Part shown: positions 4,011 through 41,204 of the stretch, piece after piece
Position numbering within the stretch: position 1 is the stretch's first letter
Layout of the letters: each line of letters starts with the position of its first letter
Assembly: GCA_035404085.1 (NCBI GenBank)
Contig: DAONGL010000001.1
Location: 42,195 to 106,194 of the forward strand
Source: Methanomassiliicoccales archaeon
Lineage (GTDB): Archaea; Thermoplasmatota; Thermoplasmata; Methanomassiliicoccales; UBA472
Direction of reading: 5' to 3'
Length of the DNA stretch: 64,000 nt
The notes under the pieces: generated by a model
Seen by the model: only the letters and a program-made list of their open reading frames with translations
Told to the model about the DNA's origin: nothing
Databases searched by the model: none
Made by a program: the position numbers and the translations under genes

Positions 4011-5930
4011 ATGAGAAATTACCAGCACGGCAAGGTCATCTTCCGGTGGTGCGACAGCTGCGGCACCCTGGTCCTGGGCGAGGTCTGCGGGATATGCGGC
4101 CGCCCTGGACGGGAGTTCGAGGTCTCCGCACCGGGGGACATCCGCCCATGTTTCGGGAAGGGCGTGGACACGGTGGCCGACCTGTTCCAAGGGCACTTCG
4201 GCACCTCCGCGTTACTTCGTACCAGGTCCGTATTCCTGAACAAGGTGGCCGGCGAGGACCGCACCGACGAGGTCATCCTGGACGGGAGGATCGTGGCGGT
4301 CATCCGCTTCGAGCTGGTTAAGGACGATTTCAGTCTGGAGCTAAAGGCCGAAGGGGCAGCGCTCCTGGCCAAGATGGCCCGCAAGGGCGTGATCAAGGCG
4401 CGGCGGCCACAGGGTCATCTAAAGGGCAAGAAGCTGGACGGAGCCGACGTTCTGGAGTTCTCTGGCGAGTTCAAGGCCGGCGACCCGGTGGTGGTCGTCA
4501 TGGGCAACAACATCGCCGCCGGGGAGGCCCGGGTCGACTCGTCCCAGGTCAAGGAAGGAGAGAAGGTCATCCACCTGCGCAGCGTGTGCAAGGCGGACGT
4601 CCCGTTCCCATTGGTCTCGGCGGACTGGAACGATTTCGTCAAGGCCAACGAGAAGCACCTTAGACAGTTGGAGTCCACCGCGGTCAGTGACATCCGTTCC
4701 TTCGTCAACAACACCAAACTTCCGATAACGCTATCCTTTTCCGGGGGCAAGGACTCCCTGGCCTGCTACGGCATCACCAAGAAGGCCCTCCGGAAGTTCG
4801 ACCTCCTGTTCGTGGACACTGGCCTGGAGTTCCCGGAGACGGTACAGTATGTCCAATCCTTCGCCAATGCCAAGGGGGAGCGCCTCAAGATCGCTCGGGC
4901 CGGAAACGCCTTCTGGGACAACGTCAAGGCCTTCGGACCGCCGGCCAAGGACTTCCGCTGGTGCTGTAAGGTGTGCAAGCTCGGTCCCCTGACCAATCTG
5001 ATCGAGGACAACTATCGAGATGGGACGGTCACCATCGAGGGCAACCGGGCGCTGGAATCCTTCGCCAGGATGGATATCGGTTTCGTGGAGAGGAACCCGT
5101 TCGTGCCGAACCAGACCGTGCTCAACCCCATCCGTCATTGGATGGCCATAGAGGTCTGGGGCTACATCTGGATGGAGGACCTGGAGTTCAACCCCCTGTA
5201 CGAGCAGGATTTCGAGCGTATCGGCTGCTACCTGTGCGCTTCCTGCTTAGGGAGCGAGTGGAAGTCCACCGGTGAGATCCATCCCGACCTGCACGCGCAA
5301 TGGGAGTCCAAGCTCGCTGAGTGGGGGAAGGCGGTAGGGGTCTCTCCGGAGTTCGTGCGCTACGGCTTCTGGCGCTGGAAGTCGCTGCCGCCCAAGATGA
5401 GGCTGGTGGCCGAGGAGCTGCAGATGAAGGTGCCCCAGATGAGGAACGATAGCATGGAGCTAAGAATATCCAAAGGAGCGAGTCCTTGCGTGGCCGGCGG
5501 TTTCTCCATGGAGGGCGTGCTGACCGTGCCGAGGAACAGGGATTTCTCCCAGGTGGCGGAAGTGCTCAAGACCGTGGGCAAGGTGAAGTTCTCCCCGGAG
5601 TTCGAGGTAGTTATGGTCAAGACCAGGGACGGCACCTTGAAGATGTTCGGCGGCGGGCATATTTCGGCCATAGCTCCGACCAAGGAAGGCGCCCAGGCGC
5701 TGTTCCGGGCCGGGGCGGAGGCCTTCCTGCGCGGTCAGCTGTGCACCAGTTGCCGCATATGCGAGCGCAACTGCAAGTTCAACGCCATCACGGCCGACGG
5801 GCAGCTCAAGGTGGACGATCGCCGATGCCGTCAATGCGGAAAATGCGCCCAGGCCTGCGTGGTAGCACATTACTATGACAAGTTGGTCAAGGCCGGAGAG
5901 GGTAAACCGGCCTACGCAGGCGTTAAATAA
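4011..5930 (+). CDS. PAPS reductase / PP-loop ATP pyrophosphatase family protein with N-terminal Zn-ribbon and C-terminal 4Fe-4S ferredoxin domain
   Basis: 639 aa. It contains CDSCGTLV...CGICG (Zn ribbon), the PP-loop LSFSGGKDSLA, and two CxxCxxCxxxC-type clusters (CTSCRICERNC, CRQCGKCAQAC) at the C-terminus. Confidence 0.8.
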   Translation: MRNYQHGKVIFRWCDSCGTLVLGEVCGICGRPGREFEVSAPGDIRPCFGKGVDTVADLFQGHFGTSALLRTRSVFLNKVAGEDRTDEVILDGRIVAVIRFELVKDDFSLELKAEGAALLAKMARKGVIKARRPQGHLKGKKLDGADVLEFSGEFKAGDPVVVVMGNNIAAGEARVDSSQVKEGEKVIHLRSVCKADVPFPLVSADWNDFVKANEKHLRQLESTAVSDIRSFVNNTKLPITLSFSGGKDSLACYGITKKALRKFDLLFVDTGLEFPETVQYVQSFANAKGERLKIARAGNAFWDNVKAFGPPAKDFRWCCKVCKLGPLTNLIEDNYRDGTVTIEGNRALESFARMDIGFVERNPFVPNQTVLNPIRHWMAIEVWGYIWMEDLEFNPLYEQDFERIGCYLCASCLGSEWKSTGEIHPDLHAQWESKLAEWGKAVGVSPEFVRYGFWRWKSLPPKMRLVAEELQMKVPQMRNDSMELRISKGASPCVAGGFSMEGVLTVPRNRDFSQVAEVLKTVGKVKFSPEFEVVMVKTRDGTLKMFGGGHISAIAPTKEGAQALFRAGAEAFLRGQLCTSCRICERNCKFNAITADGQLKVDDRRCRQCGKCAQACVVAHYYDKLVKAGEGKPAYAGVK

Positions 5931-16832: not shown

Positions 16833-16936
16833 GCCGGGGTGGCTCAGCCTGGTGGAGCGTCGGACTCATAGGGATTAGGAACAAGACCCTCTCCAGGGAA
16901 ATCCGAAGGTCAGGGGTTCGAACCCCCTCCCCGGCA
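16833..16936 (+). tRNA. tRNA-Met (CAT, elongator type) with a ~30-nt intron after position 37
   Basis: Hand-folded. Acceptor is GCCGGGG/CCCCGGC, D arm GCTC/GAGC, and anticodon stem TCGGA/TCCGA with loop CTCATA[intron 16871-16900]A. T arm is AGGGG-TTCGAAC-CCCCT, with discriminator A. CCA is not encoded. Confidence 0.85.
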
Positions 16937-19184: not shown

Positions 19185-19778
19185 ATGAAGGACCAGGAAG
19201 GAGGCATGGCGGTCAAGTTGGCCCGCCGGGCCATTGATGCGGAGACCAGGGACCTGGACGTCGACCGTTTCGACGTTCCGGATGGCTTCAGGAGGATGAG
19301 CGGAGCCTTCGTCACGCTCAAGACCTTCCCTGGGGACGAGCTGCGCGGCTGCATCGGTTATCCGGAACCGGTGTTCCCCCTGGCCGAGGCGATACTCAGG
19401 GCGGCACAGGGTGCCTGCCACGATCCGCGCTTCCCAACGTTGCGACCGGAAGAGCTGGACCAGGTGGTGGTGGAGGTGAGCGTTCTGACGCCACCGATGG
19501 AGCTAAAGGTGGACGACCGCCGGGAAGTGCCGAAGGCCATCGTCATCGGGAGGGACGGGCTGATCATGGAGCGGGGGATGTACCGGGGACTGCTGCTCCC
19601 CCAGGTCCCGGTGGAATGGGAATGGGACGTCACCACCTTTCTGGAGCAGTCCTGCCTGAAGGCCGGACTTCCCCCAGACATGTGGCTTGACCGGAAGACG
19701 AGGATATTCACCTTCCAAGCGGAGATCTTCCACGAGGAATCGCCATACGGTCAAATACTCCGGGAACGTACCCAGTGA
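19185..19778 (+). CDS. AMMECR1 domain protein
   Basis: 197 aa: SGAFVTLKT....LRGCIGYPEP...DPRFP...LEVEVSVLTPP...GLLLPQV, the signature of the AMMECR1 family. Confidence 0.9.
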   Translation: MKDQEGGMAVKLARRAIDAETRDLDVDRFDVPDGFRRMSGAFVTLKTFPGDELRGCIGYPEPVFPLAEAILRAAQGACHDPRFPTLRPEELDQVVVEVSVLTPPMELKVDDRREVPKAIVIGRDGLIMERGMYRGLLLPQVPVEWEWDVTTFLEQSCLKAGLPPDMWLDRKTRIFTFQAEIFHEESPYGQILRERTQ

Positions 19779-19782
19779 TGGC

Positions 19783-21033
19783 ATGGACGTCGTAGAGGGT
19801 AAGCTGTTCTACCAGGGAAGATTGCAGAAGGCCTGCGTAGGGATCGAGGACGGGCGTATCGTCAGCGTGAGGAAGGTCCTCAGGGGCGACGAGCATTTCG
19901 ATTTCGGTGATCGCCTGGTGCTTCCCGGAGCGGTAGATCCTCACGTTCATTTCCGCGATCCAGGTCTGACCGGTAAGGAGGACTTCTCTTCCGGTTCGCT
20001 ATCGGCCCTCTACGGAGGGGTGACCTGCGTTCTCGATATGCCGAACACCGTGCCACCGGTCATCGATGCTTCATCATTGAAGGAGAAGCGGGAGGCGGTG
20101 TCCGGCCGCTCCTGGATAGATTACGGTCTCATGGCCGGCATCGCTCCCCGGACGGATGTCGCCTCGCTCGGCAAGTGCATCGCCTACAAGATATTCCTCG
20201 GATCGTCCACCCAGAGCGTGCTCCTGAAGGAAGAGAAGGACCTGGCCAGGGCATTGGATGAGGTGGGAAGGGCCGGACGTCCGGTGAGCGTGCACGCCGA
20301 GGAGGACGCCATGCTGTTGCGAATGGACGAACGGTCTCTGCGCGATCACGAGGAGTGCCGTCCCCGCCAGGCGGAGCTGGCAGCCATCGAGAGGCTGAAG
20401 AGATATCATGAACGCGCTCGTATCAATGTATGTCACGTGAGCTGCTCCGATTCATTATCGTCGCTGAAGGGAAGCGGGATGACCTTCGAGGTCGCGCCGC
20501 ACCACATGCTGCTGGACTCCAGCATGGACCTGGGCGTGTGGGGGAAGGTGAATCCTCCTTTAAGGCGCAGGGCCGATCGGGAGGCCTTGTTCCAAGCGTT
20601 CTGTCGGGGAGAGGTTCCGATGCTGGCCACCGACCACGCTCCGCACACTGCCGCGGAGAAGGAGAGAGGGTTCGGCGAGGCGCCCTCCGGACTACCTGGG
20701 GTGGAAACAGGTTTCGCCATGATGCTGGCGTTGGTCAAGAAGGGGTTCCTATCCATGGACGTGCTGCTCAATGCGGCCTGCTCCAATCCCGCCACGACCT
20801 TCGGATTGAACAAGGGTCAGATAGCGGAAGGTCGAGACGCCGACCTGGTGGTCATCGACCCCCGAGAGGTCACGATAATAAAGGGGAGAAACATGCACAG
20901 CAAGTGTGACTGGACTCCCTACGAAGGGAGAGAGGCGCTGTTCCCGCAGGCGGTGTTCCTGCGAGGAACGCTAGTGCTCAAGGACGGCTCGACCATGGCC
21001 GAGCGCAAAGGGAGGGAGATATCGTATGCTTAA
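19783..21033 (+). CDS. pyrC: dihydroorotase (cyclic amidohydrolase family)
   Basis: The track ORF is trimmed to ATG 19783 (MDVVEGKLFYQG...), 4 nt after the AMMECR1 stop. It has the metal motif PGAVDPHVHFRDPG, then VSVHAEE, TDHAPH and DADLVVID. Confidence 0.85.
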   Translation: MDVVEGKLFYQGRLQKACVGIEDGRIVSVRKVLRGDEHFDFGDRLVLPGAVDPHVHFRDPGLTGKEDFSSGSLSALYGGVTCVLDMPNTVPPVIDASSLKEKREAVSGRSWIDYGLMAGIAPRTDVASLGKCIAYKIFLGSSTQSVLLKEEKDLARALDEVGRAGRPVSVHAEEDAMLLRMDERSLRDHEECRPRQAELAAIERLKRYHERARINVCHVSCSDSLSSLKGSGMTFEVAPHHMLLDSSMDLGVWGKVNPPLRRRADREALFQAFCRGEVPMLATDHAPHTAAEKERGFGEAPSGLPGVETGFAMMLALVKKGFLSMDVLLNAACSNPATTFGLNKGQIAEGRDADLVVIDPREVTIIKGRNMHSKCDWTPYEGREALFPQAVFLRGTLVLKDGSTMAERKGREISYA

Positions 21034-31780: not shown

Positions 31781-31881
<101 letters not shown>

Positions 31882-34475: not shown

Positions 34476-35579
34476 TCATTTGATCTCCTTCCAGGGGAAC
34501 CTGCTCTTGATGGCCGAAATTACCCTCTGGTCCCTGGCCAGTCGGTCACTTAGCACCGAGCCGTCCGGAACGGTGACCCGGACCTTCTCGTTCCGGTAAT
34601 CGTCAACGGTCTTGCCCATCCACTCCCCTTTGATTCGTATCCCGGTGCCCTTCAAGCTCAAGGAGGTGTGCAGTATGCTCAGGTCGTACAGCAGTTCGAT
34701 CATCAACCACGGATCGTAGGAGATGGTCAACGGCACCTCGTATGGGTAGCTTATCAGCATCGAGGGCACCTTGTGAGCGTTGGCATGGGCCCTCGTCTTA
34801 TCGTCATTGGTCAGGAAGAGCACGTCCACCCGTTGTTCGAGCATCTCTGCGGCCACGGAACGGAGCATCTCATCGTCCCTAGCCTCCTTATCATCAACAA
34901 AGGAGCCGCCCTGTGCCGACCAGCAGTTGTAGTGTTGCTTGAGCGCCACCACCTCCGCCTGTCCGTTCAGTGCCTTACGCCCGTTCTTGTTCAGGCAGTT
35001 GAACAGGTCGTCTGCCACAATGCGGTCCCGCACCGCCCTTCTCAGCTCATCCACGTCTCTCCGATCGTACTTCTTGCCGACCCGCCTGGACAGCTCCTCC
35101 TCGGCCATGGAGGGGATCAATACCTGTACTCTCTGGGGATCGAAGGAGCGGACGTTGCAGCCCTTTCCCGCCAGAAGCAAACGGGAGAAAAGTCTGCGAT
35201 AAAGGAGATTGGTATCCAGTCCGATGCACGTCTGCCGCGGGAAGCGGTAAGGGTCGCCCCGCCTCTCGTTAAAACGGTATATCTCGGCCATCAGAGCGTC
35301 CAGGTTCGTAGGGGGCATGAACAAGGAGGCCTGTAACGCCTCTCGCAGGTCCAGGAACGTCGGGATGTCCCTGGCCATCTGATCCCCCAGGGCGCTTCTC
35401 ATTCGACCATATGCCTCGTCGTAATCCCTTTCCCGGACCACCCATTGCACCTGCTGGTGGTCCAGGTCCAAGGCTAGGAGGTCTAGGTCGAGAAGGTCCG
35501 AGCGCACGATCAGGTTGCCCTTATCGGCCATCCTGGATTCGTTGAGAACGACGGTGATGAACTCCTTATCCACCTCCAT
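34476..35579 (-). CDS. PIN-domain nuclease with unrecognised N- and C-terminal domains
   Basis: 367 aa. The four acidic PIN positions occur in canonical order: CIGLDTNLLYRR, PSMAEEEL, DDEMLRSVAAE, VLFLTNDDKT. Its ATG shares one nucleotide (35579) with the TGA of the upstream ORF. Confidence 0.75.
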   Translation of the reverse strand: MEVDKEFITVVLNESRMADKGNLIVRSDLLDLDLLALDLDHQQVQWVVRERDYDEAYGRMRSALGDQMARDIPTFLDLREALQASLFMPPTNLDALMAEIYRFNERRGDPYRFPRQTCIGLDTNLLYRRLFSRLLLAGKGCNVRSFDPQRVQVLIPSMAEEELSRRVGKKYDRRDVDELRRAVRDRIVADDLFNCLNKNGRKALNGQAEVVALKQHYNCWSAQGGSFVDDKEARDDEMLRSVAAEMLEQRVDVLFLTNDDKTRAHANAHKVPSMLISYPYEVPLTISYDPWLMIELLYDLSILHTSLSLKGTGIRIKGEWMGKTVDDYRNEKVRVTVPDGSVLSDRLARDQRVISAIKSRFPWKEIK

Positions 35580-36052
35580 CAGCGCACCTCCTTCAAGAGA
35601 TCATGCGAGCTCTGCAGTTCCAACGGGATCTCCAGATACGGTCGCGAAGCGTTCTGTAGCGATTCGATGTACAGGTAGAAGATATGGTTGACCTTGACCT
35701 TGCCCGCGCCGATTATCGTGCCCAGCACGGTGGCCTTGGTGCCCGGCGTAACGTCGACAGCCACTATGTTGCCCTTACCCTTCTCCGCGGCGACGATATC
35801 GTTGACCGTCTGTCCGATCTGTTTGATGTCATCCCCCGGAACGTCCACCAGCTCCACATCCGCCGGGGAGCCGTGCTCTTTGAGCAAGACTATCAGCATG
35901 TCCCTGGCCATCTGGCCTTGGGCTGCTTCACAGCCTGCGGTCAACACGTACACCTTGTCCGGAAGGTAATCGAACTGGCGGATGTTGGACCAGACGGAGT
36001 TGAACAATCCCCAGAAGCTCCGTCCCATCATGGTCAGCAGGACCTTGCCCAT
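35579..36052 (-). CDS. stand-alone Rossmann-like protein with CARF-like motifs
   Basis: 157 aa: KVLLTMMGRSFWGLFNSVW (strand-Gly-x-Ser-helix) and IVAVDVTPGTKATVLG (D-x-T-x-G-T-K) resemble the two ligand-pocket motifs of CARF domains. No effector or HTH domain is present. The assignment is tentative. Confidence 0.5.
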   Translation of the reverse strand: MGKVLLTMMGRSFWGLFNSVWSNIRQFDYLPDKVYVLTAGCEAAQGQMARDMLIVLLKEHGSPADVELVDVPGDDIKQIGQTVNDIVAAEKGKGNIVAVDVTPGTKATVLGTIIGAGKVKVNHIFYLYIESLQNASRPYLEIPLELQSSHDLLKEVR

Positions 36053-36133
36053 GCCCTAGCCATGGTGATGGGGAATTAATCATCCTTTCCCTAAAGAATA
36101 AAAAAAACATCCGGAACGGCCATAAAAAGGTGA

Positions 36134-36141
36134 TAAAAAAA
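36134..36141 (-). terminator. oligo-T tract downstream of the secreted-protein gene
   Basis: On the minus strand, a T8 run begins 14 nt after the stop at 36155. A second T-run lies at 36099-36107. Archaeal termination commonly uses such tracts. Confidence 0.4.
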
Positions 36142-36154
36142 GAATGAAAGGGGT

Positions 36155-36772
36155 TTATGCTTCGCAGACCGGCATCTCGAGGAATTCCGGCAGCCAGAGC
36201 TTGAAGTGCATCTGCCCGTTCACATAGTGCAGCAGGAGATGGGCCTTCAGGTCCAAGTTGAAGTCCAGCGGCAGCGAGGATATCTCCCCGTTGACATGGG
36301 CGTTGATGATGGCCGATCCGATGCCTCCGTCGTAGATGATGACGTGGGCCATTATCTGAAGGTTCTTGATCTCCAGGGCCAGCACCTGCTCTCCGTCAAT
36401 GAATATGGTGATGTCCCCGTGCCAGAACGCCTGTAGCTTCACATCCAGGCTGTCCTTCTTCTCCCAGGTCTTCAGGTTTACATGGACCATTCCGTCCAAG
36501 GCCACGGTTATGACCTCATCGTCCCACTCCTCTACCAATCTCAGCAGGCAGGGGTGCTCTTCCGCGATCCTCTCCAGGTCCTCCGGCGGGATCATTTCCA
36601 GGAGCGCGTCCAGGTCTCCCCGCTCAATATCAAAGGCCACGTCGATCTTCTCGGTGATCACGACATCCGCGACCTTGCCGGCAGCGGAGGTCGTAGGGGC
36701 GCTCAAACAAAAGGCGCCCAGCATCGCAAATGCCATCACGATAGCTAGAACTGTCCTTAGCATGTGTTTCAT
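36155..36772 (-). CDS. secreted/exported hypothetical protein
   Basis: 205 aa with an N-terminal signal-like segment (MKHMLRTVLAIVMAFAMLGAFCLSAPTTSAAG). The remainder is acidic and beta-rich, with no family recognised. Confidence 0.6.
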   Translation of the reverse strand: MKHMLRTVLAIVMAFAMLGAFCLSAPTTSAAGKVADVVITEKIDVAFDIERGDLDALLEMIPPEDLERIAEEHPCLLRLVEEWDDEVITVALDGMVHVNLKTWEKKDSLDVKLQAFWHGDITIFIDGEQVLALEIKNLQIMAHVIIYDGGIGSAIINAHVNGEISSLPLDFNLDLKAHLLLHYVNGQMHFKLWLPEFLEMPVCEA

Positions 36773-36846: not shown

Positions 36847-37782
36847 TCAACCCAGTATGCGGCGTATGGCCGCCTGGGTTTCCTGCGGGGTGGCGGTGGT
36901 GTTCACCAGATGGACCCTCGATTGGGACAGGAACTTGCGGAAGAACGTCTCCCGGAGCTTCATCTTCCGCTCGTCTCGCACCATCTGGTGGGGGTTGCAA
37001 AGGTCGTTCGCCGATAGGTACTCCCAGGCCTCCTCTGATGTTAGCTCCCTCACCAGTCGAGCATCGCTCTTGTCGCGCTTGAGCATGACCACTTCGTGAA
37101 TGGTGGTCAAGGGGACGACTGAACCTTTACCGGTGACCCATCGAACGTTCACGACCGCCCTCTGGCGGTTGTCGAACTTGGCCTTCTCCACCAGTTCGCG
37201 GTACTCGTCCCATATGCTCCCGATGTCCGCGTCGATGTAGCAGTTCTTCTCAGAGCCGTAGGCCACCGGTCGCCTCTCCGACAGACGGACGAAGTACCAG
37301 TCATCGGTGACCAGCCGGGCGTTCTTGTCTCTCAGTAGGCCCCAGGAGTGGGTGGTCTTGCCGGTCTTCGACGGGGCGATGAGCGTTATCCCCTTTCCGT
37401 TTATGTCCAGGGCGGCGCCGTGCACCGAATGGATCTGGTGCTCGTCCTCCAGTATGTCACCGGCCAGAGCCAACGCCACGCTCTTGATCCACCCGTAATA
37501 GTCGAAGTTGAACAGGAAGGCCGTCTTGGTGTTGGGTTCAAAGAGCACTTCCAGGGGTCGTCCCGGATCGTCCAGGCAGATCACCCGGCCATGGGAGCGA
37601 ACCGTTTCGGACATGGAGTAGAAGTTGTCCTCCCACATGTCCTTGATATGGTCGTTCAGCGTGTACAGTTTGACACAACAGCCGCTGATGTCCGCTTTGG
37701 CGGTGTGGAACGGGAACGAGGAATACTTCTCGTACAGGGCGTCCTTCTCCTCATACGATATCAATTTCACCGGGTAGCTCAT
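36847..37782 (-). CDS. HPr kinase/phosphorylase C-terminal-domain-like P-loop protein (HprK-related)
   Basis: 311 aa: VHGAALDINGKGITLIAPSKTGKTTHSWGLL...ARLVTDDWYFV parallels the HprK pattern HG.L..i.G.GvLi.G.SG.GKS......L......LV.DD. Confidence 0.7.
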   Translation of the reverse strand: MSYPVKLISYEEKDALYEKYSSFPFHTAKADISGCCVKLYTLNDHIKDMWEDNFYSMSETVRSHGRVICLDDPGRPLEVLFEPNTKTAFLFNFDYYGWIKSVALALAGDILEDEHQIHSVHGAALDINGKGITLIAPSKTGKTTHSWGLLRDKNARLVTDDWYFVRLSERRPVAYGSEKNCYIDADIGSIWDEYRELVEKAKFDNRQRAVVNVRWVTGKGSVVPLTTIHEVVMLKRDKSDARLVRELTSEEAWEYLSANDLCNPHQMVRDERKMKLRETFFRKFLSQSRVHLVNTTATPQETQAAIRRILG

Positions 37783-41103: not shown

Positions 41104-41204
41104 TGGCGCCGAGGGGGAGATTTGAACTCCCGAGGCGTTGCCGCCACGAGCTAGCTGGCGGAAATTTTCCAGGCTCGCGCCTTACCGGTCTGGGCCACCT
41201 CGGC
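41104..41204 (-). tRNA. tRNA-Ser (GGA) with short (~14-nt) intron; CCA encoded
   Basis: Hand-folded on the reverse complement. Acceptor is GCCGAGG/CCTCGGC, with a 3-bp D stem GCC/GGC, and anticodon stem CGAGC/GCTCG with loop CTGGAA[intron]A. The long variable arm is TGGCGGCAACGCC, T arm GGGAG-TTCAAAT-CTCCC, and discriminator G followed by CCA. Confidence 0.75.

Follow-up and report, generated by a model that had tools for sequence, protein, structure and literature searches.

The gene pair and its predicted products

The window analysed here is a 64-kb stretch of DNA from a Methanomassiliicoccales archaeon, taken at its full length, and the element of interest within it is a pair of minus-strand open reading frames (ORFs) that share one nucleotide and encode proteins of 157 and 367 amino acids. 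Its tRNA genes with introns and the labels of its homologues likewise point to Methanomassiliicoccales as the source. The upstream product is a predicted CARF domain of the CARF_m1 clade, and the downstream product is a predicted PIN nuclease with an intact set of active-site residues. Based on sequence comparison, the pair is the split form of Crf6/CARF_m1, a catalogued, experimentally uncharacterised CARF+PIN family, and does not represent a new category. On balance, the two proteins probably function together as a two-subunit, ligand-gated ribonuclease of that family.

The gene arrangement proposed in an earlier reading of the bare sequence (the original prediction) agrees exactly with the ORF list and with the minus-strand sequence. 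Base 35579 is common to the TGA of the CARF gene and the ATG of the PIN gene, where the minus strand reads GGTGCGCTGATGGAGGTG (in a longer reading of the junction, GCGCTGATGGAGG). A GGAGG element resides 7 nt 5′ of the PIN start codon, within the last codons of the CARF gene. At other loci the junction takes the forms TGATG, ATGA, TGAATG or TAATG, and a GGAGG-like element again lies in the 3′ end of the CARF gene; the translational coupling that was proposed from this one locus is accordingly a junction type conserved family-wide. Both ORFs are real genes under purifying selection rather than chance reading frames, with dN/dS values against close relatives of 0.11-0.17 for the CARF gene and 0.05-0.12 for the PIN gene, compared with 0.03-0.06 for a neighbouring homoserine dehydrogenase gene. 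The two ORFs have 62 and 44 homologue clusters, and an exhaustive profile search yielded 326 cluster representatives, giving a family of at least 326 clusters at 50% identity.

The assignment of the small protein to the CARF superfamily draws on profile and structural comparisons that agree with one another and with the original prediction. Residues 3-155 match positions 2-153 of the 156-position PADLOC model PDLC01971 (“CARF_m1--CARF”; E=1.6e-25), and there are further matches to PDLC01972 (E=1.2e-20) and to positions 2-148 of PDLC01973 (“CARF_m1--CARF_PIN”; E=3.4e-17), while Pfam returns sub-threshold matches only (HFX_2341_N, CARF_Card1 and Cas_APE2256). When the family profile is compared with the PDB, it retrieves two ring nucleases of the Crn1 type, Sso2081 and Sis0455 (E=1.3e-4 to 0.0095); a TAL-effector match of the same profile was rejected as a repeat artefact without a significant single stretch. 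In the alignment to Sso2081, G10-R11-S12 falls on G9-T10-S11 and T102-P-G-T-K106 on T-G-G-R-K, so that Ser12 is aligned with the catalytic Ser11, and the alignment ends at residue 117, before any equivalent of the C-terminal catalytic Lys. The AlphaFold2 model (predicted local distance difference test score, pLDDT, 79) displays a Rossmann-like beta-alpha core that is confident over residues 1-128, and all of its top 50 PDB matches in Foldseek are CARF proteins (Cam1, Can1, Can2, Card1, Csm6, Cdn1, Crn1 and Csa3), no non-CARF fold appearing among them. The model also matches SiRe_0806 (E=3e-4), a CARF-PIN protein discussed below.

The motifs quoted in the original prediction are all present and are conserved in the family alignments. 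In the small protein, G10-R11-S12, F17-N18-S19-x-W21 and D100-V-T102-P-G104-x-K106 are invariant or nearly so, and the first and last of these contribute the segments (G10-R-S12 and T102-P-G-x-K106) that form the candidate ligand pocket. Beyond the confident core lies a C-terminal tail, modelled poorly and yet carrying several invariant residues (Table 1), which may serve in docking to the PIN subunit or as a linker.

The larger protein matches Pfam PIN_4 above the gathering score (E=5.8e-5) and occupies positions 224-454 of PDLC01973 (E=1.2e-10), and thus the two proteins each cover their own part of one fused profile of 465 positions. A HMMER search of PDB sequences with this protein gave nothing significant. 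Its AlphaFold2 model is of high confidence (pLDDT 89.4; predicted template-modelling score 0.89) and is divided into three parts, approximately residues 1-110, 117-275 and 290-367. The best Foldseek match is SiRe_0806, solved both in the apo form (9JXW) and with cyclic tetra-adenylate (cA4; 9JXX), at E=6e-5 and a template-modelling (TM) score of ~0.40; this alignment spans 340-358 columns and therefore extends beyond the PIN core. The next matches are PIN domains (3i8o, 3ix7, Rrp44 and Nmd4), and there is no HEPN match in the effector.

Conservation was counted in 134 diverse representatives of the 50%-identity clusters. The four acidic residues named in the original prediction are nearly invariant there (D122 and E162 in all 134, D235 in 132 and D259 in 133), as is R201 of the helical insert (132 of 134). 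In the model the four acidic residues occupy the canonical PIN sites: D122 follows beta1, E162 lies in the helix behind beta2, D235 opens the helix that comes next to beta3 and D259 follows beta4. Outside the core, N13 and P73 of the N-terminal domain are conserved in the wider family, and G318, W320 and K323 mark the C-terminal domain. Since these signature residues are widely conserved, the flanks that the original prediction could not place are family-specific domains rather than unstructured filler. The N-terminal domain has no Pfam or PDB sequence match and is a candidate adaptor to the CARF subunit; the C-terminal domain is possibly an RNA-binding module.

Table 1. Positions of the gene pair, its junction and predicted domains, and of a related gene cluster (window coordinates unless another locus is named)
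Feature	Position	Strand	Description
CARF gene	35579..36052	-	157 aa; predicted stand-alone sensor subunit of Crf6/CARF_m1; stop TGA 35581-35579
PIN nuclease gene	34476..35579	-	367 aa; predicted Crf6 effector subunit; ATG 35579-35577
Coupling junction	35577..35591	-	GGAGG 35591-35587, 7-nt spacer, TGATG stop/start overlap 35581-35577
CARF C-terminal tail, residues 129-157	35582..35668	-	pLDDT <50; N134, R137, I142, P143 and H150 invariant
N-terminal alpha/beta domain of PIN protein, residues 1-110	35250..35579	-	high pLDDT; beta-alpha-beta-beta-beta plus helices
PIN catalytic core, residues 117-275	34755..35231	-	D122, E162, D235, D259; conserved helical insert (K170, R201, E209)
C-terminal alpha-beta-beta-beta-alpha domain, residues 290-367	34479..34712	-	G318, W320 and K323 in 104-122 of 134 representatives
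AT-rich intergenic region 5′ of CARF gene	36053..36154	-	102 bp; 39% GC vs 57.6% in the window
Asgard-type cluster	L043:2640-11098; L044:2696-11092; L045:2420-11083; L046:371-9099

Pairing and fusion across the family

The two genes are adjacent, overlapping or abutting in nearly all of ~70 loci. At species level, 35 Methanomassiliicoccales genomes encode the PIN protein, and in them the CARF gene lies directly 5′ of the PIN gene wherever the contig allows this to be seen. A metagenome scan seeded with another subfamily recovered a CARF ORF belonging to the family beside the PIN gene in 29 of 29 loci, whose GC content ranges from 36 to 62%. The reverse order, PIN followed by CARF, occurs in one low-GC (36-38%) sublineage (L070-L075), and the genes still overlap in the reversed pairs (L070:9806-11321 and L072:9806-11306, and likewise L071, L074 and L075).

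Most of the 326 cluster representatives are 330-385 amino acids long and match over their full length, and the split two-gene form predominates. However, at least seven representatives of 527-701 amino acids (about eight among the 150 best) are single-chain CARF-PIN fusions, including one from a Lokiarchaeota metagenome-assembled genome (MAG). In these, a full-length CARF domain at the N terminus is followed by a full-length homologue of the 367-residue protein; the CARF portion is retained whole, tail included, and passes directly into the PIN-protein N-domain, which is kept between the CARF and PIN domains. Taken together, the fusions, the adjacency in both gene orders and the translational coupling argue strongly for a physical sensor-effector complex. 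The proposal that the pair is a single sensor-effector unit is supported both by the natural fusions and by the similarity of each model to SiRe_0806, a CARF-PIN protein with a cA4-bound structure.

The layout of the locus invites comparison with toxin-antitoxin modules, in which the PIN protein would be a toxin neutralised by binding of the small upstream protein, as in VapBC, and freed on degradation or displacement of that protein. PIN toxins are common in archaea, a small gene 5′ of a PIN gene with an overlap of 1-4 nt is the classic VapBC arrangement, the four acidic PIN residues are shared, and some copies of the pair occur in defence or mobile contexts. We nonetheless consider this explanation highly unlikely. 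The upstream protein is a predicted CARF ligand-binding domain and not an AbrB, RHH or HTH antitoxin, and no DNA-binding domain (AbrB, RHH, PHD or HTH) was found in it in the Pfam, PADLOC and AlphaFold2/Foldseek results. Moreover, the PIN protein has 367 residues in three domains, two of them additional to the nuclease and conserved, whereas VapC has ~130-150 residues; the single-chain fusions are hard to square with a labile antitoxin, and the reversed gene order also occurs.

The resemblance to Crn1 raises another alternative, namely that the small protein is an independent ring nuclease and the PIN protein a functionally separate RNase of the same operon. Sso2081 and Sis0455 are its nearest PDB profile matches, Ser12 falls on Ser11, and Crn1 is likewise a stand-alone CARF protein of similar size (~180 vs 157 residues); Crf6 also bears a ring-nuclease flag (“r”) in a 2025 table (PMC12669027). 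Crn1, however, acts alone in type III genomes, whereas the CARF protein of the window belongs to a family in which a PIN nuclease invariably accompanies it, either as a partner gene or as a fusion, the co-occurrence being obligate in all subfamilies. Nor was a system producing cyclic oligoadenylate (cOA) found nearby for such an enzyme to regulate, and ring-nuclease activity within the sensor would fit a two-subunit, ligand-gated ribonuclease too, as in Csm6. Independence of the two proteins is thus very improbable.

Proposed mechanism and relation to known systems

For the two-subunit, ligand-gated ribonuclease that we favour, the formation of a complex, the ligand gating, the use of RNA as substrate and the biological role, which may include abortive infection, are proposals. 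The 157-residue CARF subunit, which probably dimerises as other CARF domains do, would bind a small nucleotide signal, most plausibly a molecule of the cyclic oligoadenylate type. Binding would activate the 367-residue subunit allosterically, possibly by way of the CARF tail (residues 129-157) and the N-domain of the PIN protein. The metal-dependent PIN site formed by D122, E162, D235 and D259 would then cleave RNA and slow or stop growth. Because the conserved Ser12 is aligned with the catalytic Ser11 of Crn1, a self-limiting ring-nuclease activity is suggested, by which the CARF subunit may degrade its own ligand and so switch itself off. Coupled translation through the GGAGG element and the TGATG overlap would deliver both subunits together. 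The signal itself would not be made within the 64-kb window; its origin would be another part of the genome or a source unrelated to CRISPR.

The original prediction had held that a split sensor-plus-PIN pair of this kind was an undescribed system, and this part of it does not stand, as both proteins match existing CARF_m1 models, one for a stand-alone CARF and one for a fused CARF_PIN. We take the names of these PADLOC models to derive from the 2020 CARF census (Makarova et al. 2020). CARF_m1 was subsequently renamed Crf6 and listed as a CARF+PIN family that is typically not CRISPR-associated (Makarova et al. 2025, Suppl. Table 2; PMC12669027), with flags for sensor, effector and ring nuclease and with a PIN RNase as its effector (PMC12669027). 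In view of that description, the missing CRISPR context at the window locus is what is already known to be usual for the family. The same table has a separate entry for another archaeal CARF+PIN group, Crf10/11 (CARF_m3) (PMC12669027); two CARF families fused to PIN had already been noted in 2014 (PMC4012209), and a type III-linked CARF+PIN cluster (Msed_1167) was recorded by Shah et al. in 2018 (PMC6546367).

The window pair resembles Crf6/CARF_m1 in that both proteins match PDLC01971-01973, the effector is a predicted PIN RNase and CRISPR linkage is lacking. It differs in architecture: the table gives a CARF+PIN fusion, whereas the genes in the window are separate and translationally coupled. 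This one-polypeptide architecture is not found in the window, while fused relatives and stand-alone “CARF_m1--CARF” models exist within the same family. What is new here is the split form as the norm, the single-chain fusions that tie the two proteins together, a fixed core-genome locus in one clade set against defence islands elsewhere, and a recurrent neighbourhood with PLD, helicase and viperin genes.

SiRe_0806 of Sulfolobus islandicus has the same sensor and effector folds and, by its PDB title, binds cA4. It is, however, a single chain of ~406-418 residues with no HMMER sequence similarity to the window pair, and the structural match is distant (TM ~0.40). Its source order, the Sulfolobales, carries type III systems. 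We presume it to be related to ST0035, Msed_1167 and Crf10/11 (CARF_m3), the Crf10/11 assignment being a guess. A literature search retrieved no paper on SiRe_0806, and nothing usable on type III systems or Cas10 in Methanomassiliicoccales.

Similar comparisons can be drawn with other signalling nucleases. The cA4/cA6-activated type III effectors Csm6 and Csx1 also have a CARF sensor that controls a non-specific RNase, some CARF domains also cleave their own ligand, and Csm6 is among the matches of the CARF model; in those proteins, however, the nuclease is HEPN rather than PIN, and the window pair consists of two polypeptides with no cas10 or type III locus nearby. Panoptes, which combines mCpol with a CARF-TM effector, provides a case in which CARF effectors answer cOA from a non-Cas10 cyclase outside CRISPR loci (PMC13577387). 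It differs from Crf6 in its effector, and neither mCpol nor another cyclase was found beside any Crf6 pair examined.

Genomic setting and its bearing on function

The Pfam content of the window is that of a housekeeping region and includes LysRS, S3Ae, Topo VI-B, NAD synthase and pyrophosphatase. As stated in the original prediction, CRISPR, cas and cyclase genes are absent from these 64 kb: an array search found no CRISPR-like array, and a PADLOC scan of the 70 window ORFs gave no match to Cas, Cas10 or CD-NTase. The scan returned only the CARF/CARF_PIN matches of the pair itself and scattered single matches attributable to housekeeping folds.

In the clade to which the window belongs, the gene order is an ACT-like protein of 165 amino acids, homoserine dehydrogenase, a LeuA-like synthase, a 311-residue HPr-kinase-like P-loop protein, CARF and PIN, and this order is kept in ~20 species-level genomes, down to ~40% PIN identity. 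The pair therefore occupies a fixed site after hom-leuA in many Methanomassiliicoccales, and the genes downstream of it are variable and are not defence genes. The HPr-kinase-like gene is its immediate upstream neighbour, with a gap of 10-40 bp, in ~20 species of the order; the window copy (36847-37782, minus strand) has a weak match to the HPr-kinase C-terminal P-loop domain that falls under the Pfam cut-off (E=2.7e-5). As an obligatory third component this gene was rejected, since it is absent in L005 and L028 and in all other lineages.

In the window itself, a 205-amino-acid ORF (36155-36772, minus strand) is inserted between the HPr-kinase-like gene and the pair, and it is because of this insertion that the upstream region exists which the original prediction correctly described as T/A-rich and as belonging to the pair. 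Judged by its composition, that region is the probable promoter of the pair in the window's lineage. Among the syntenic relatives the ORF is confined to the window, L012 and L013 (74-77% identity), and is thus a lineage-specific insertion giving the pair its own upstream region. The product looks secreted, with a signal-peptide-like N terminus and no Pfam match, and L024 and L069 carry weak relatives of it 3′ of the pair.

Only 35 species-level genomes with the pair were detected in a pattern-based scan that may miss some, and hence the pair is not universal in the order. It can also be lost: at the syntenic site after the HPr-kinase-like gene in L039 (9700-10806), CARF residues 3-50 are joined to the PIN protein from about residue 70, an internal deletion of ~0.5 kb that inactivates both genes. 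Frameshifted CARF genes are also present in L021 and L022, which are nanopore-derived MAGs, and may be assembly errors.

A different setting is observed in other Methanomassiliicoccales and in Asgard-type lineages, where the pair resides in defence islands. It lies between a D12 methylase and a 1050-residue PLD/helicase/DUF3427 protein in L041, between GmrSD/VWA and an AIPR-DUF4420-Z1-HATPase-Dcm cassette in L042, and beside both a DpnII restriction-modification system and a PLD-protein gene in L031 (RumEn M1); in L035-L038 its neighbours are msrA on one side and a PAS histidine kinase on the other. Flanking PLD nucleases are likewise seen in L030/L041, L031, L032, L034 and L040.

The most elaborate neighbourhood is that of L043-L046, which are of Promethearchaeota (Asgard) type, have 29-32% GC and represent one lineage (66-85% PIN identity). 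Here a conserved cluster (Table 1) contains a viperin (pVip, E=1.4e-77), an MkoA-like SF1 helicase (E=6.8e-84), an unknown protein of 354-372 amino acids and a DrmC/MkoB-like PLD nuclease, with the genes for a CARF3-wHTH regulator and for the CARF_m1 and PIN proteins running divergently from it. This cluster may form a single integrated system, or it may be no more than a defence island; in L043 it is further flanked by DndB, methylase, Vsr and HNH genes. Homologues of this PLD (E=7e-54) and of the unknown protein, of ~366 amino acids (E=2.5e-21), recur on an unrelated metagenomic contig of 58% GC (L063:9351-13434), 3′ of the pair and on the opposite strand. In L044, a 509-residue SAVED-domain protein (19463-20992, minus strand) is encoded ~8 kb from the pair, among sugar-modification genes and with no cyclase annotated nearby. 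Otherwise, the surroundings of the pair in the metagenomic subfamily vary and consist mostly of housekeeping genes.

These neighbourhoods were also searched for a source of the signal. The 47 loci sequences, ~700 kb in total, contain no CRISPR arrays, the Pfam-annotated neighbourhoods of the pair contain no cas genes, and Cas10 was not among the 25 of 63 families listed in a PADLOC scan of 142 neighbour ORFs. A gene run in L064 and L068 was considered as a cas operon and rejected after giving no PADLOC matches. A cyclase was sought among conserved unknown neighbours (366 and ~800 amino acids in L043; 720 and 1362 amino acids in L063), but none of them matched an entry in Pfam, PADLOC or the PDB, apart from the slight hint of a very weak guanylate-kinase match of the 354-372-residue protein (E=0.098). 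IMG/VR viral contigs, PLSDB plasmids and GenBank phages hold no relatives of the pair, and its carriage on mobile elements is ruled out within these searches.

The fixed locus suggests an alternative in which the pair of the Methanomassiliicoccales clade is a domesticated housekeeping RNase, no longer antiviral, that responds to a nucleotide metabolite or alarmone of the cell itself by adjusting RNA turnover, possibly in concert with the adjacent HPr-kinase-like P-loop protein and with the amino-acid biosynthesis genes of hom/leuA type. The conserved order from the ACT-like gene to PIN (the HPr-kinase-like gene being dispensable) in ~20 species-level genomes, the short gaps to the upstream gene, dN/dS values like those of the neighbours, the purely housekeeping window and the lack of plasmid, phage or viral-contig copies in the searches are all consistent with such a role. 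It is harder to reconcile with the same pair in clear defence islands of other Methanomassiliicoccales and Asgard-type lineages, with the absence of the HPr-kinase-like gene from L005/L028 and all other lineages, or with a pair that is not universal and is deleted in L039; furthermore, we know of no metabolite ligand for any CARF domain. We regard domestication as a serious, if rather unlikely, alternative. The original prediction had named a universally conserved housekeeping module with no variable-island distribution as the finding that would speak against it, and the evidence divides on this point: within the clade of the window the pair is stably inherited among housekeeping genes, while family-wide it is patchy, has been lost in at least one genome and lies in defence islands in other lineages.

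Several further considerations count against a two-subunit, ligand-gated ribonuclease. No cyclase or Cas10 was found in the window or in any annotated neighbourhood and no array in ~700 kb, and defence genes do not usually show the long-term synteny among housekeeping genes that is seen in the clade of the window. The model is of low confidence in the CARF C-terminal tail, through which the signal may pass. A literature search found no demonstrated ligand, RNase activity or complex for any Crf6 member, and the one biochemical record that it gave for a fused CARF-PIN protein is negative: ST0035, which belongs to another CARF clade, was reported to bind cA4 only weakly, with no activation of an RNase (PMC6546367).

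Conceivably, Crf6 pairs act as the output of a signalling pathway independent of CRISPR, in which the ligand has a source other than Cas10. In the Asgard-type lineage the pair would be wired to the CARF3-wHTH regulator, viperin and the Mokosh-like helicase and PLD proteins, and in Methanomassiliicoccales it would serve as a permanent core-genome sentinel or a metabolic RNase switch. This broader proposal is speculative and, as a whole, doubtful; if it were true, CARF proteins could have an activator of a new kind, such as a modified nucleotide or the product of an unrecognised synthase. CARF effectors are understood almost wholly through type III CRISPR-Cas, while the Crf6 family habitually lives outside CRISPR loci, and it raises the real question of what activates a CARF effector living without CRISPR. 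The window offers a clean representative of the family, with two small, well-modelled genes and conserved catalytic and pocket residues. As the natural unit is two subunits, sensor and effector can be expressed, mutated and titrated separately, and the natural fusions are a ready positive control for their interaction. The contrast between the core-genome locus and the defence islands suggests where to seek the source of the signal.

Two features elsewhere in the window are of separate interest. One protein, probably that encoded at 4011-5927 on the plus strand, strongly matches BrxP (E=1.1e-45) as well as mad3, SspD and DndC in PADLOC; Pfam identifies one PAPS_reduct-domain protein in the window, and the BrxP-matching protein is likely a housekeeping enzyme of the PAPS-reductase fold and not a defence gene. 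In addition, three tRNA genes (16833-16936, 31781-31878 and 41107-41204) are ~98-104 nt long and match the 71-position Rfam tRNA model in full. Their length implies introns, and the anticodons assigned by ARAGORN in bacterial mode (for example Asn-ATT and Phe-AAA) are therefore unreliable.

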